From Nitrosopumilaceae archaeon (GTDB lineage Archaea > Thermoproteota > Nitrososphaeria > Nitrososphaerales > Nitrosopumilaceae): 64,000 nucleotides of DNA. Made by a program: the position numbers and the translations under genes. The notes beneath the pieces are model-generated. The model made no database searches, was not told the DNA's origin, and saw only the letters and a list, made by a program, of their open reading frames with translations. Numbering within the stretch: position 1 is the stretch's first letter; each line of letters begins with the position of its first letter. Below, piece by piece: positions 48,274 through 55,542 of this stretch. The stretch lies in the NCBI GenBank assembly GCA_965203465.1, contig CBDBCR010000001.1:448001-512000 (forward strand), in the 5' to 3' direction.

Positions 48274-50116
48274 CTATGCGGACATCCGCCTCTGGTCGTC
48301 CATGCGCACCAGTTTCTTCTCAAAGTCCTCGTGTATTTTCCTGGCGCGCGCCATGAGGTCTTCGTACGTCCTTGCGTACCTTTTGTTCGCCTTGGCCTCG
48401 TCTATCATGGTCCTCACGGGGCCCTCCGGTATGCTGCCTGCGACCACGTATCCGGTGACATCGTAGTACGGGCTGTCCGGGTGGCTCCCCATCTTGCTTT
48501 TCACAAAGTCGACATAACTCAAAAGCTGGTTCATGTCCGCCGCGCTGACCCTGTGCTTTGGACGCTTTAGCTCCACCACATGCAGCGTGTTGCCTATCCC
48601 GATCGCCAAGAAGTCCATGCGCCTGTCCTTTTCCTCGAGTCCGCCTTCGGGATACTGCTCGGACAGTATCTTGGAGTAGCGCGCCTCGTGCCGGTAGTCC
48701 GTCCACGTCGGATCTAGGATCCACGGCGACTCTAAAAAGTACCTGTGCATCTCTGGCATTTCCCGGGCGTCCCGGTCGACGAGCTGCGCAAGCTTTTCGA
48801 TCGCCCCGAGCCTGCCCCTTACTATGCGGAGCATCTCCCTGGCCTCGATAAGGTTCCATGTCTTGAACACGTCCAGCATTCTAGCGGAGTCTGGCTCTTC
48901 TGGAAGGTCGGCGACCATCTCCTTGAACGCCTGCGCCTCGAACGATCCGCGTATGTACTGCATGATCTCGATCTTGCGCCCGTCGTCAAAGTCGTCGCCG
49001 TGCGCCAGTATCCCTATGATCTTGTCCGCTACTTTTTTTTCGGCCGGCACCAAGCCGTCCAGCCACTTGGCGATTGCGGGATCGCCCCTTATCGGCTTTT
49101 CGGCCCTGCTCTTTCTGTTCGCCAAGATCTGTTTGGAGATGTCCACGAGCTTGCACTTGCCCCATTCCTGCAGCGCTTCCCCCTTCTCGCTCTCCCATAT
49201 CAAGGCCTGCCGGTTTGTAGACACCAGATCCTCTTCCTCGTCGAAAAAATCGGCCGTGATCTCGCCCGTGATGCGCGAGTACGTGTACTTGTCGCCCTGC
49301 CTTACGCCGAATGTGGTGCTCTTCTGCACAAGCTTGCCGCGGGCCATGACAGTCAGCCCCACGTCATCTGCATCCAGCGCCGATTTCATGGCGTATATGG
49401 TGCCCGATACCGTCCAGCCTCGGTTAGGCACTACCCGTTCTGCGTCTATGCGCCAAACGTGCTCTACGTCGTCGTTTCGGAACTTGTCGCCCGGAGCTAT
49501 GTCGGTTCCGTTAACCGCGACCCTGAAACCGCCGTTGATCACGGAAAAATGCCTCGACAGGTCGCGCCTTATACCGTCCACGTTTATCGGCGTCCTCCTC
49601 TTCAGTCCGGTTAGGGTGATCCGGGTGCCTTTGCCGTCGTTCGTGTCGATGTCGTTGTCGACAACGCGCGGCTCGTAGCACATCTGCCCGGTGGCGTGCT
49701 CCAGCATATCGTCAATGTTCATCGCGATGGCGTTCTTTCTGCCGTCTTTTACCGTGCTGACTTCCACGTTTTTTGCTATGCCGAACACAGAAAGTTTGCC
49801 TATGCCCTTCCTACCCATCACTTTCCTGCCGCCCTTGGTGAGTCCGTCTCCCTCTTCGCGCCGCTTCCGTCCTATGCGGAGGTACTTGTTGGCCATGTCG
49901 TCGTACGACATGCCCTCTCCAGTCGCTTATGACTATGGCTGACTCTTCGGTTATGGGACCCTCCGGCAGCGTGATCTCCACCCTGTCAGCGTCGGCATCC
50001 CAGGCGTTTGCCACCATCTCGGATACGACTGGCGGAAGCTTGCCGTACAGCTTTATGCCCAAGTCTTCGATAACCGGAAGCTCGATCTTGATCACTAGCG
50101 GATCCCGCGCATTCAC
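48274..50116 (-). pseudogene. GHKL/MORC-type ATPase with C-terminal PD-(D/E)XK nuclease, frameshifted at about 49922
   Basis: LY...VSEMVANAWDADA; ISD|GEGMS; GRKGIGKLS; C-terminal RMDFL...VVELKRP...QL..Y. Confidence 0.85.
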
Positions 50117-51976: not shown

Positions 51977-52079
51977 CGCGTAGGCGCGTTTTCGTCCGCG
52001 CCTTGGCGTCCGCGGCGGCCTGACAGGCGGCTGTGCGGAAAACCAACGGATATTAGCCGCAGCCCGGCGCGGCGCCTTG

Positions 52080-52318
52080 ATGCCCAAGTCGCCCAACCCG
52101 TTCCTGAACCTTCCGGAGGACAAGCTGGCCATGGTAAGGGAGTATTTCCTAAAGTCCGAATTCGCCGGCCAGATGGACTTTGAGCGGTATCTTGCGTGGC
52201 TGCACGAGGACGATCTGATCCCGGAGGACGTCTTTGCCGTAATCGAACACGAAAACACCGACCCAAGATAGTGTATTCCTCCGTAGAAAAGCTGCTAGCG
52301 GACTTGAAGAAAGACTAA
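52080..52318 (+). pseudogene. RelB-like antitoxin remnant (frameshift near 52265)
   Basis: Alternate frame supplies a KIVYSSVEKLLADLKKD C-terminus typical of such antitoxins. Confidence 0.45.
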
Positions 52319-52362
52319 GTGCGGGTTGCTTGGAGCCGCGCTCCACGCCACGGGAATGCACA

Positions 52363-52538
52363 ATGAGAGATCGGATCGTTGTAAAGGAATCTCAGTTTAG
52401 GCGCCGGTACAAGCGCTTGGGAGATCCGAGGCAAGCGCGCGTAGATCTGGCAATACGGGCTCGACCCGGCAAGCACGGGCGCCTCAAAATTCCTAAGGGC
52501 GTTTGCGCACGAGATCGACAAATCAGACGGGCTGATCT
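52363..52538 (+). pseudogene. RelE-like toxin remnant interrupted by IS110
   Basis: MRDRIVVKESQFRRRYKRL..RQARVDLAI; a later frame reads AHEIDKSDGLI and continues CR beyond 54982. Confidence 0.45.
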
Positions 52539-53206
52539 CCCATATCAAATCTTCCCGGATTGACGGGCCACTGCAAACGAGTGTGTGCTCAGTCAGGCGG
52601 GCGGGCTTTGGCCGCCGCCGCTTTATACTTTCGCTGCACTAGATCCTTGTCCTGCGTCCGGTATTCGGCCATGTCGGTCAGTATGTGCCAGACTACCTCC
52701 GTCAGGCGGCGCGCGATGGCCACCCTCGCTTTCTTTTTGCCTATCCTTTTCGACAGCCGCTCGTAGGTCGAAGACATTCGAGCGTCGTAGCGCGCCGCGA
52801 CGTTGGCCGCCTCCACCATGGCGTTCCTTAACCAGACGGACCCCTTTTTGGTTATGCCGCCGCCGCGCTTGGTCTCGCCGCTGTTCCGGTGGGACGGAGA
52901 AAGGCCCGCGTACGAGACGAGTTTTTCGGCCGTCCTGAATCTCTTTACGTCTACTATCTCTGCGATTATGGTCAGCGCGGTAACGTATCCTATTCCGGTG
53001 ACCGTCATGACGAGCTTTGCCCTATCGTCGTCCATGCATTCGGAAGATATCTCGCGCTCCAGCGTTTCCGTCTGTTTCTGCATCAGCTGCAGCGTGTCGA
53101 GGTACGAGTCCAGCGACAGCCTGTCCACCGGCGAGACGCTTACGGTTCGCATCCACTTCAAGTTGGTCTTTGAGAATTTCGTCTTTGTGGGAAGCTTGTG
53201 CTCGTA

Positions 53207-54316
53207 TAGTTCTGGACAAAAGTTCGCCGTCAAAACTTGGCGTATCTTTTCGGGCGCTGGTTCATGCACTTGATCGGATCTATGTTGTAGTGCACGGTCC
53301 TGTAATGCTCCGACAAGTCTTTGCAAAAGTCTTCGAACGATGCGTGGTACTTGTACGAGACGCTCGATCTGCTCTTGACTAGCCACATGTGCTCGGCCGG
53401 ATTCACGTACGGCGAACCGACGGGCGTATACCGCAAGACGATCTCCGGGTTGTCGCGCAAAAACTCCTGAACCTTGCGCGATTGGTGGTACGACGCGCGG
53501 TCTTCGTATATGAGGAGCGGCCCGAACCGCCTGTGCGCTTCCTTGAGAAAATCGATGAACGTGTCGGAGTTGGCCCTGTCGTACAGCCGGACCATGTGTC
53601 TTGTGTCTTCCAGCAACAGCCCGTGCGCCGACACTTTTTGGGGGTCGTTGGTGAAGGTTCCGCTTACCGGCGTGCCTTGCTCCGTCCAGAACAAGGCGTT
53701 GGACTTGTCGTCCCTGCGGTGGTGCGACTCATCCCCCCACCCCACGGTGCGCCCTTTGCGCCTGTGGTAGGCAATAACGCGCCTTTCGCGCTTCTGCCAC
53801 TTGCTCACGGCGGCCGGGCTGGCGTGGTTTACGTGGACGTACTGTATTTTCTTGGGAGAGAGGTTGCGGCCGCGCATGAGCCTCAGGACATGCCTGCTGC
53901 TGTAGCCCACGCCGGTCTTCCGTTTTATCGCGTCGCTGACCTCGTGCGGCCGCACCCGTTTCCGGGACGCGTCGTCTATGATCTTGTTGAGTTTGTCTTT
54001 CCTTACCTTGGGCGGCCTTCCTGCACGCGGACGGTCGCGGAGGGCGTCCAGCCCGCCGCTCTCGTACCTGTCCACCCACTGCCGCACCCAGTCGTCGGAC
54101 ATCATCAGGCTCTGCGCAACATCGTCGACTCGCTGTCCTTGCACCGCCACCATGTTGACGGCCACTATGCGCAGGCTGACCCGGGCGTCCTTTTCCTTCT
54201 TGAGTGCCTTTTTCAGCACCGTTGACGTGTTAGTCATGGGTGTAGCCTGATCCCGTAGTAAATAAGTGCGTGAGAAAAAAATTGTTGACAAACCGACGAA
54301 TTTTCGTCCAGAACTA
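53207..54316 (-). mobile_element. IS630-family element (1110 bp) with TA duplication
   Basis: TIRs TAGTTCTGGACAAAAGTTCG / CGAATTTTCGTCCAGAACTA; TA at 53205-53206 and 54317-54318. Confidence 0.93.
53230..54237 (-). CDS. IS630 transposase (single intact frame)
   Basis: HTH WVDRYE.GG..L.DRPR.GRP; DDE triad GDES, EDRASYH, NPAEHMW. Confidence 0.93.
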   Translation of the reverse strand: MTNTSTVLKKALKKEKDARVSLRIVAVNMVAVQGQRVDDVAQSLMMSDDWVRQWVDRYESGGLDALRDRPRAGRPPKVRKDKLNKIIDDASRKRVRPHEVSDAIKRKTGVGYSSRHVLRLMRGRNLSPKKIQYVHVNHASPAAVSKWQKRERRVIAYHRRKGRTVGWGDESHHRRDDKSNALFWTEQGTPVSGTFTNDPQKVSAHGLLLEDTRHMVRLYDRANSDTFIDFLKEAHRRFGPLLIYEDRASYHQSRKVQEFLRDNPEIVLRYTPVGSPYVNPAEHMWLVKSRSSVSYKYHASFEDFCKDLSEHYRTVHYNIDPIKCMNQRPKRYAKF

Positions 54317-54787
54317 TATTTGGCCAGAAGCGCAGTTATCTTGTTCTTTTGCTCCGTCGCCGTGCGGACCCGGTCGAGCCTGGTTCTGGCCAGGTTGCGC
54401 AGGTTCCTGTAGCGCTCGTCAGGCACGAACGACTCGTAAACCATGTCTAGGAGCAGCAAGTCCGCGAGCACCTCCGAGTCCACCCTGTCGTCTTTCAGTT
54501 TTGCCTCGGCTATGGCTTTGGTCTTGGACGGGTGAGCCAAGATCGTGTCGATGCCGCACTCCTCCAGCGTGTCGTGCAGTATGATCCAGTAATTGCCGGT
54601 CGCCTCGCAGACCGCCCTGGCGTTCTTGCCGTGCGTCTTCTTTACGTGTGCCGCGAACGCCTCTATGTCTTTTTTGCTGTTCTTGAATTCGGTCTGTTCT
54701 ATTATATCCTTGCCGTTTCCTTTTATTGTCGCCGCGCACATCTTTTTGTGCACGTCTATCCCAATGTTGATCAATGTGTCACCTCCT

Positions 54788-54960
54788 TCGAAGCCATTGG
54801 ATTTGTGGATTTGCCCGATTGAGCGGAAAGCTCCCATTCACCCTCTGTGGGGTAGTACCCCGTCCGCCTATTGTTGTGAGTTAGTCTGCCGGTCACCCTC
54901 ATGCGGGGTAAGAATAGTTCAACTCTCGGGCCCATCTCGGAGAGCCATGCTCCCCTCCCA
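54788..54960 (-). ncRNA. Predicted IS110 bridge RNA
   Basis: Two GAGGGTGA motifs, followed by CCGGCAG (matches target flank) and ATGGGAG (matches donor end). Confidence 0.75.
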
Positions 54961-55051
54961 GATAAGATTTGATACAGGGTCTGCCGGAGTTCCGCTTCCG
55001 GCAGGCGAGGATCGCACGCTACCGTTATTACGCGCCGCGCCGTTGCCCGGA

Positions 55052-55358
55052 CATGGCCCTCGGCCCGGATGCTCGCCCCCGCGCACCGGAAGGCAAACCC
55101 GGAGTCTCGGGGAAATCGATACTGGATCTGACCTTGGAGATCTGCTTCAAGAACCCCTTTACACGCGAGACCGGCGTGACGCGCTACGAGGTCATAGAGC
55201 ACGTCCAGACGTGGATGTGGAGCGACGAGATCATAAAGGCCGAGCGCGGCTTTGACGAGTACGTCCGGACCGGCAGGCTCGTCAAGGTCGGACAAGACAG
55301 GGGCGGAGAGGAGTTCTACAAGCTGGCAGAGCATCTGGACTCCCAGCATCGGCGCTAG
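55052..55358 (+). CDS. Small hypothetical protein (possible winged helix; start uncertain)
   Basis: ILDLTLEICF...FDEYVRTGRLVKV...FYKL with host-like codon usage. Confidence 0.5.
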
Positions 55359-55542
55359 GCGCATTCGACTGAAGCATGTATTGTCCCCGGGCAGGCGATC
55401 GCGCGCTACCGATATTGCGCGGCGCCGCCTTGGCATGGCGCCCGGCCCGGCTGCCGACCCCCGCGCGCCGGAAGGCAAAACCGGAGCCGCGCGACAAAGC
55501 CGGCCGCGCGCGGCCTTTTACGCTCCGGCCGCACGGCGGCCA

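Follow-up and report, generated by a model that had tools for sequence, protein, structure and literature searches.

The IS110-family element and its recombinase

The window analysed here, a 64,000-nt stretch of the genome of a Nitrosopumilaceae archaeon (assembly GCA_965203465.1, contig CBDBCR010000001.1, positions 448,001 to 512,000), contains an IS110-family insertion sequence (IS) that is read on the minus strand from 54980 to 52537 and has its recombinase gene interrupted by an IS630-like insertion of 1112 bp (Table 1; window positions are numbered over the whole stretch). Here it is proposed, from comparison with its copies and homologs, that this is very probably an RNA-guided IS110/IS1111-family (DEDD + serine) insertion sequence of an ammonia-oxidising archaeon, with a left end encoding a bridge (seek) RNA of ~125 nt.

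Along the minus strand, a flank ending in GGAACT is followed by CCGGC-AG and then by the start of the element, ACCCTG-TATCAAATCTT. At the other end, the non-coding sequence after the stop codon closes with AAGATTTGATA-TGGG-AG, next to which lies the right flank ATCAGCCC; the two non-coding ends are unequal, with 206 nt on the left against 52 nt on the right. In the homologs, GGAGGTGA is conserved immediately before the start codon. A first-pass annotation, made from the window sequence alone, had described 11-bp subterminal inverted repeats and an AG(A) duplicated at both ends; the repeats were read at 54974-54964 and 52553-52543 and the AG(A) at both junctions of the window element, and every string quoted in that annotation lies on the minus strand at the coordinates given for it. 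The AG that it took for the core is present at both junctions in every copy and homolog listed and as a single AG in the empty sites, being equivalent to the canonical CT on the other strand. Four other sequencing runs (X1, X3, X4 and X10) were compared by their contigs over window positions 52000-55500, and the assembly graphs of other runs branch at 54987/54988.

The recombinase scores 246.4 bits against the family model NF033542, 'IS110 family RNA-guided transposase', which has a cut-off of 140. Its best solved relative is the IS621 transposase (E 2e-16, with the catalytic positions aligned); the D, E, D and D positions and the SG of the GLSPSHRNSG motif all align with IS621. The catalytic residues had been expected to be intact once the IS630-like insert was removed, which agrees with this alignment, and rebuilding the gene, as had been suggested, is unnecessary with two intact 357-aa copies (C and D) in the same genome. 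An insert-free form of the gene, with a joint from 53204 to 54317 that skips the 1112 bp, was found in 4/4 runs.

Table 1. Coordinates of the element, its putative RNA, its recombinase gene and its genomic copies (window positions unless a contig is given)
Feature	Position	Strand	Remarks
Left flank, target left half CCGGC + core AG	54981..54987	-	identical in the 4 full copies and the partial copy; differs further upstream
Left non-coding end, 206 nt, from ACCCTG up to the TTG start (exclusive)	54775..54980	-	copies B and C 100% identical, D 99.5%
Left subterminal inverted repeat TATCAAATCTT, 11 bp	54964..54974	-	complementary to 52553-52543
Predicted bridge RNA core, ~125 nt	54813..54939	-	covariance model R1, 112.8 bits, E 3e-26
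Outer stem GCCCGA/UCGGGC	54931-54926 with 54818-54813	-	encloses target loop and donor loop
Target loop 5' strand AACUAUUCU	54911..54919	-	CUAUUCU (54917-54911) complementary to top strand AG+AATAG (core + right flank)
Hairpin 1, UACC(C)/(G)GGUG	54894..54910	-	holds most of the first GAGGGTGA (54900-54893); helix 3, 3/4 pairs with double changes
Target loop 3' strand, CCGGC + AG core + AC	54884..54892	-	AC = first 2 nt of the element, handshake-type
Donor loop 5' strand ACGGGGUAC	54855..54863	-	ACGGGGU (54863-54857) complementary to the element's first 7 nt ACCCTGT, one G.T
Hairpin 2, UACCC/GGGUG	54839..54854	-	holds most of the second GAGGGTGA (54845-54838); helix 5, 3/5 pairs with double changes
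Donor loop 3' strand, AUGGG + AG core + CU	54829..54837	-	AUGGG + AG same as the final 7 nt of the element's right end
Recombinase N-terminal part, DEDD RuvC-like domain	54317..54774	-	TTG start at 54774; PF01548, E 1.6e-25
IS630-like insertion sequence, 1112 bp counting one TA	53205..54316	-	DDE_3 and helix-turn-helix domains; ends TA..TA; from alignment to intact copy D
Recombinase C-terminal part, GLSPSHRNSG serine motif and stop codon	52589..53204	-	PF02371, E 4.6e-26
Right subterminal inverted repeat AAGATTTGATA, 11 bp	52543..52553	-	complementary to 54974-54964
Right element end ATGGG + core AG	52537..52543	-	end of all copies; branch point at 52536 in contigs of other runs
Right flank of the window copy, ATCAGCCCGTC	52526..52536	-	only AGA agrees with the guide-specified AGAATAG
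Copy A (window copy)	54980-52537	-	split by the IS630-like insert
Copy B	C3:728633-731120		split by another, 1153-bp DDE_3 element at a different place
Copy C	G000 C3:937083-938422		1340 bp, open 357-aa frame
Copy D	G000 C3:326849-328188		1340 bp, open 357-aa frame

Structure of the putative bridge RNA

The regions upstream of the recombinase homologs were aligned as 225 nt from 21 homologs (alignment A1) and as 20 trimmed regions (A2). RNAalifold, run on the MAFFT alignment, gives four helices with 20 pairs, 9 of them having compensatory double changes, and this structure with an added outer stem became the covariance model R1, which has 29 matches in 35 sources. Among the 27 distinct rows, 97.5% of the cells are paired, compared with 85.8% in shuffles and 33-45% when the partners are slid. 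The five helices have double changes in 17/26 pairs, a value reached in 0/500 shuffles. The conserved G.U pairs hold only on the recombinase-sense strand.

In the structure, the outer stem encloses two internal loops, the target loop closed by GAGUUG/UAACUC and the donor loop closed by GCGGA/UCCGC. Each of them is built as a stem, a guide, a small 4-5-bp hairpin UACCC/GGGUG and a second guide. The repeated GAGGGTGA, which the first-pass annotation had regarded as a free scaffold motif, corresponds instead to the 3' half of this small hairpin in each loop. Copy D has a U to C change in hairpin 1 that converts its U.G pair into C-G.

Matches to R1 at E <=1e-5 were found in 10/151 genomes of the class and in 8/80 of the same family, and low-scoring matches also lie upstream of the more distant class members L028, L029 and L032. 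With filters off, R1 has no credible match (<=7 bits, E >3) in the Rhizobium (L072, L074) and Haloarcula (L073) loci, and none in L039 and L041, the genome's other two IS110-family loci. The recombinase itself is more widely distributed, with homologs (E <=1e-20) in 77/401 genomes sampled from the class, this one included. Its nearest plasmid-borne relatives are rhizobial (37.8% identity) and haloarchaeal (36.2%) IS110-family genes, the rhizobial one having a longer spacer downstream of the gene (one record).

Guides of the target and donor loops

On the 3' side of each hairpin, the loops repeat the junctions of the element. In the target loop, CCGGCAGAC at 54892-54884 follows the first GAGGGTGA and is identical to 54987-54979, and in the donor loop, ATGGGAG at 54837-54831 follows the second and is identical to 52543-52537. 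These are the two guides that had been recognised in the first-pass annotation as copies of the left junction and the right end; they stand, now placed as the 3' strands of the target and donor loops and each extended by two handshake-type bases. The right-hand guides, which that annotation could not identify, were found on the 5' strands of the same loops (CUAUUCU at 54917-54911 and ACGGGGU at 54863-54857). The covariation of guides with flanks and ends that had been proposed as a check was found, and all guide classes have it, across 13-18 homologs.

The target 3' guide was counted in 18 elements, leaving out copy D, which is the same element as the window copy, L020, whose left end is truncated, and L034, whose flank falls beyond the slice. 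The 5 nt before its AG equal the left flank at 5/5 positions in 14/18 elements, compared with 4/306 non-cognate pairings. The 2 nt after the AG equal the first 2 nt of the element, also in 14/18, including those that start with AT or AA (L016, L021, L023 and L030); the exceptions are L011, L015, L019 and L035. For the guides that depend on the right junction, this was located in 15 elements, using the outer junction for L012, and it does not fall in the locus of L013, L019, L023 or L034. The target 5' guide, locally aligned to the core and right flank, has a mean score of 11.33, against 6.06 for 210 non-cognate pairs (0/20000 permutations as high); the top score of 16 in L009, L011 and L035, and that of 14 in L008, correspond to a contiguous complement over the core and 5-6 flank bases.

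In the donor loop, the 3' guide is the same as the final 7 nt of the right end in 15/15 homologs, L030 among them with a joint G to A change in guide and end. The donor 5' guide and the element start match on average at 5.31/7 positions, against 4.20, in 13 distinct guide/end combinations (0/20000 permutations as high). The two bases after the donor 3' guide match the first two flank bases with a mean of 1.27 against 0.67 (12/20000 permutations as high), so that, in this loop as in the target loop, the dinucleotide after the 3' guide tracks the non-cognate partner.

Copies of the element and its target sites

The genome (G000) contains four full copies of the element and one 104-nt fragment. 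Common to all copies is the sequence from CCGGCAG through GGGAGA, outside of which they differ; as the first-pass annotation had anticipated for further copies, all of those in the genome lie at CCGGCAG. The right flanks read AATAGG in copies B and C (AGAATAGG), ACTAGG in copy D (AGACTAGG) and ATCAGC in the window copy. The RNA-coding region of the window copy is identical to those of copies B and C and both of its ends are intact; since its gene is split, it could be moved in trans, only with protein from copy C or D.

Four sites in this genome read CCGGCAGAATAG uninterrupted, with CCGGCAG contiguous with AATAG, and are empty sites. All four are at the end of one ~84-bp palindromic repeat with the termini CTATTCTGGCGG...CCGGCAGAATAG, of which 15 copies were aligned out of 21 BLAST hits, hits of <40 nt being dropped. 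A contig of run X10 joins the right end of the element to AATAGATCC, the flank of the site at C3:202378 (29/30 match by eye), so this site is empty here and occupied in another sample. From the uninterrupted CCGGCAGAATAG sites, the unrelated repeat family in which they lie and the site occupied in X10, it follows that CCGGCAG belongs to the target and not to the element. The tips of the ~84-bp palindromic repeat are the natural target of the element, and the site specified by the guides is CCGGCAG|AATAG. The repeat resembles a miniature inverted-repeat transposable element or a repetitive extragenic palindromic sequence, with examples at C1:540487, C3:202378, C3:851865 and C3:783392.

The right flank of the window copy is off-consensus, which suggests that it was mainly the left half-site that guided this insertion. 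The empty site predicted for it in the first-pass annotation, CCGGCAGATCAGCCC, is therefore right in its left half, CCGGCAG, and is otherwise an off-consensus half-site, its right flank ATCAGCCC fitting the guide poorly. The pattern recurs in locus L012 (G304 C1:2748479-2752531), where one copy has a full homolog nested within its C-terminal part; for the nested copy, the guide fits the left half-site at 5/5 positions and is unrelated to the right side, and the right flank of the outer copy fits the guide.

The 104-nt fragment (C3:936988-937091) is a left end that stops exactly in the guide-coding CCGGCAGAC and overlaps the start of copy C. It could be the product of self-insertion into guide-coding DNA followed by recombination, or of unequal exchange between 9-nt repeats. 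In another homologous locus, L031 (G186 C1:228824-232435), a long tandem array of the 13-nt unit GAAATACTGTTAT begins a few bases past the GGGAG end.

Contigs of X4 and X10 go back by 505 and 332 bases, at window positions 52034-52538 and 55017-55348, and the 505-base back-joint (X4 and X10) falls exactly on the right boundary of the element. Beside the window copy, the flanks are thus arranged differently or tandemly repeated in other samples.

Nested insertions, a related locus and the host genome

In X4 and X10, the word depth over the IS630-like insert greatly exceeds that around it, which points to many copies or relatives of the insert in these samples. In copy B, the insert (C3:728921-730064; L040:351-1503) carries a 364-aa DDE_3 gene, its terminal inverted repeats are perfect over 22 bp, and there is an 8-bp duplication. 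Locus L041 (G000 C1:168967-169968) encodes a 58%-identical paralog of the recombinase without the catalytic D, E and D positions and without the SG motif; with these lost and no R1 match upstream, it is a decaying relic.

The host genome has 2.26 Mb in 4 contigs, with 65% G+C and a completeness of 96.9%. It encodes an archaeal ammonia monooxygenase subunit A, AmoA (E 1.9e-115), and McrA was not found in the genome at this completeness, in line with the designation 'thaumarchaeal' given to the RNA in the first-pass annotation. The AmoA gene is located at G000 C1:418739-419287, ~29 kb upstream of the window start.

Proposed mechanism and alternative explanations

In the mechanism proposed here, the left non-coding end would give rise to the ~125-nt RNA, with the outer stem closing its two internal loops. 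The 5' strand of the target loop, CUAUUCU, would pair with AG+AATAG, and the 3' strand carries CCGGC-AG; the AC after this guide matches the start of the incoming element in the manner of a handshake guide. The donor loop would pair through its 5' strand, ACGGGGU, with the element start ACCCTGT, and its 3' strand copies the right end. By homology with IS621, the 357-aa recombinase would hold the target and a circular donor through the RNA, and strand exchange at the AG/CT core would lead to insertion into CCGGCAG|AATAG at the tip of the ~84-bp palindromic repeat. What is shown is the anatomy of the element, the covariation of the RNA structure, the covariation of the guides, the empty and occupied sites and the intact copies; the circular intermediate and the chemistry of strand exchange are presumed. 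All four guides can be read from sequence alone, as can the two pairs of handshake-type bases, the core, the natural target, a polymorphic insertion and the empty sites, and about twenty diverged homologs make a natural reprogramming series. Copies C and D offer their 357-aa protein and ~125-nt RNA as candidates for tests outside the systems derived from bacteria. The known mechanism, established in 2024, is unchanged by this element, and the NCBI family model already names such proteins RNA-guided transposases.

Several observations weigh against this interpretation. The 27-row alignment was fitted to the R1 structure, which favours that structure, and the RNAalifold result on the MAFFT alignment agrees with it. 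A search of Rfam with E up to 10 over window positions 52300-55200 gave no family over the RNA and two chance-level matches outside it. The single-sequence fold of 54980-54790 is no more stable than shuffles (z 0.48), so folding, which the first-pass annotation had proposed, is uninformative for the single sequence, and it is the alignment-based structure that covaries. The transcription, ends and processing of the RNA are all predictions. The target 5' guide shifts its register to the core by 1-2 bases between homologs and is less exact than the other three pairings; the right flank of the window copy scores 6 against its own guide, the lowest of 15; and the CU after the donor 3' guide of the window element matches the right flank at 1/2 positions. 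The counted homologs include L015, from an unpublished genome (G282). Neither a circle-junction joint (predicted as GATATGGGAG-ACCCTGTATC) nor a joint spanning the whole window copy, which would mark the empty site, was present in the contigs of X1, X3, X4 and X10; contigs drop rare forms, and the lack of a joint in them is no evidence either way.

The short motifs are also weak evidence alone. GAGGGTGA has only two copies in the window, at 54900-54893 and 54845-54838, with 1.69 expected, and 52/100 shuffles reach two. CCGGCAGAC is found 6x in the window and CCGGCAGA 271x in the genome; the remaining four window matches to CCGGCAGAC and the one to GATATGGGAG (at 49192) are unrelated sequence. 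Since such short matches are insignificant alone in a genome with 65% G+C, the case rests on the comparison with copies and homologs.

These frequencies, together with a single-sequence fold that is not unusually stable, would fit an explanation in which a protein binds the internal CCGGCAGAC and ATGGGAG as subterminal repeats, or these are remnants of the ends, the left end being no more than the 5' leader of the recombinase mRNA. However, the homologs have a 5-nt stretch that varies in step with the sequence flanking the element (14/18 vs 4/306), as would not be predicted for a site at which a protein binds the element's own ends, the stretches lie in single-stranded parts of a structure with 17/26 covarying pairs, and the family is experimentally RNA-guided according to the passages cited (PMC11208160, PMC11187229), which makes this explanation highly improbable. 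An equally slight chance is given to CCGGCAG being part of the element, starting at 54987, with its internal copy a direct repeat of the terminus and no sequence-specific target. CCGGCAG does lie to the left of all copies in the genome and the assembly graphs of other runs branch at 54987/54988, but there are four uninterrupted CCGGCAGAATAG sites in a repeat family unrelated to the element, one of them occupied in X10 and joined there to AATAGATCC, and the 5 nt differ between homologs that have the same element start.

A further alternative accepts the RNA and makes it a bridge RNA of the IS621/IS110 type, in which the visible guides would be the left target and donor guides and the right-hand guides would lie downstream. 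The RNA is indeed upstream of the recombinase gene, as described for the IS110 group (PMC11208160), IS621 is the best solved relative, and the two guides are 'left' by the strand paired. Nevertheless, both guides come after the loop hairpins, on their 3' side, with bases that match the non-cognate partner directly behind them, the place of the right and handshake guides in IS621 as far as described in PMC11208158, and it is on the 5' side of the hairpins that the right flank and the element start have their complements. The order of the guides, top strand and then bottom strand, and the 11-bp subterminal repeats are IS1111 traits in the text of PMC11187229. This alternative is only slightly less improbable than the two above, and an RNA with all four guides in its two loops, two on either side of the hairpins, is preferred here.

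Comparison with known systems

The IS621-like label of the first-pass annotation holds for the position of the RNA upstream of the gene and for the relationship of the recombinase, and fails for the guide order, which is the reverse of that of IS621 and ISEc21 and the same as in the IS1111 seekRNAs, going by the cited descriptions. In IS621, each loop is ordered as left guide (bottom strand), hairpin, right guide (top strand) and handshake bases, with LTG at 50-58, RTG at 77-80 and HSG at 81-82 in the figures given by PMC11208158 and PMC11208160. Similarly to IS621, as presented in the portions cited of Durrant et al. 2024 (PMC11208160) and Hiraizumi et al. 2024 (PMC11208158), the element has a DEDD + Ser recombinase, and an RNA encoded upstream of the gene, in the left end, in which the target loop precedes the donor loop and each loop runs stem, guide, hairpin, guide. 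Reading the core as CT gives the RNA-DNA geometry described for IS621, in which the AG strand pairs with the 5' guide and the CT strand with the 3' guide; here CT lies on the strand that is antisense to both RNA and gene, so that the order of top and bottom complements is reversed in the orientation of the element. The subterminal repeats have 11 bp, compared with the 2-3 bp reported for the IS110 group in the passage cited (PMC11208160). Unlike in the IS621 RNA as described there, the outer stem closes both loops, and neither Rfam nor sequence-level similarity between the RNAs was found.

The IS1111 group is defined, in the text cited, by 11-13-bp subterminal inverted repeats, 7- and 3-bp extensions and a non-coding region that is usually downstream (PMC11187229). 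Its seekRNAs have the top-strand complement first, whereas ISEc21 has the bottom-strand complement first (Siddiquee et al., PMC11187229, in the sections cited). As in the IS1111 elements ISEc11, ISPa11 and ISKpn4 of that account, the top-strand complement lies 5' of the bottom-strand complement here, and other shared traits are the 11-bp subterminal repeats, the unequal terminal extensions, a target at the tip of a repeated element and the motif GL-P----SG (PMC11187229). A reading of the reversed guide order as a new 'mirror' layout was dropped, because the same order is reported for the IS1111 seekRNAs in this source. Differences from the group as it is described there are the RNA-bearing non-coding region, which is upstream of the gene here and downstream in IS1111, and the extensions, which are 6 + 6 bp, or 8 + 4 if the core is assigned to the left, against 7 + 3 in IS1111 (PMC11187229).

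Intermediate layouts are mentioned in the same source. Upstream non-coding regions are found in a few exceptional IS1111 elements, such as ISMtsp17, and ISHvo10 (from a haloarchaeon) and ISAcp5 are IS1111 relatives with long non-coding regions on both sides (PMC11187229); the present element resembles these three in having upstream or two-sided non-coding regions, in a comparison by text descriptions only. With ISEc21 it shares the upstream non-coding region and a recombinase of ~358 aa, and differs from it in the guide order, since the bottom-strand match precedes the top-strand match in ISEc21 as described (PMC11187229) and the opposite is found here. A literature search found no description of bridge RNAs in ammonia-oxidising archaea, and the supplements of the key papers, which lay outside it, may list related elements.

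This mixture of IS110 and IS1111 traits bears on how the RNA moved between the ends of elements. The elements of ammonia oxidisers might form a distinct lineage that joins IS1111-type recognition, with its top-then-bottom guide order and long subterminal repeats, to an IS110-type layout with the RNA upstream, having a compact two-loop RNA closed by the outer stem and a promoter probably inside the left end instead of at the junction, a proposal that is made tentatively and is the less likely outcome. To our knowledge, a sigma-70 junction promoter is not to be expected in an archaeon. Were the proposal true, the lineage would be a natural example of a bridge RNA moved between element ends and a source of small archaeal bridge recombinases with four guides and handshake bases directly readable, and the fragment at C3:936988-937091 and the left-half-only sites of the window copy and L012 would be traces of half-site recombination.

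By the broad traits of the IS110 family, namely a DEDD domain, a Tnp serine domain, a match to NF033542, a two-loop RNA, covariation with the flanks, a match to the donor and a shared core, all of which are present, the element is a real but expected member of the RNA-guided IS110/IS1111 family. Of the traits that define the IS1111 group in PMC11187229, as cited, it has the 11-bp repeats and the guide order and not the long non-coding region downstream; of those of the narrow IS110 group (IS621 and ISEc21, as described in the same portions of the literature), it has the RNA upstream of the gene and not the bottom-then-top order of the guides.

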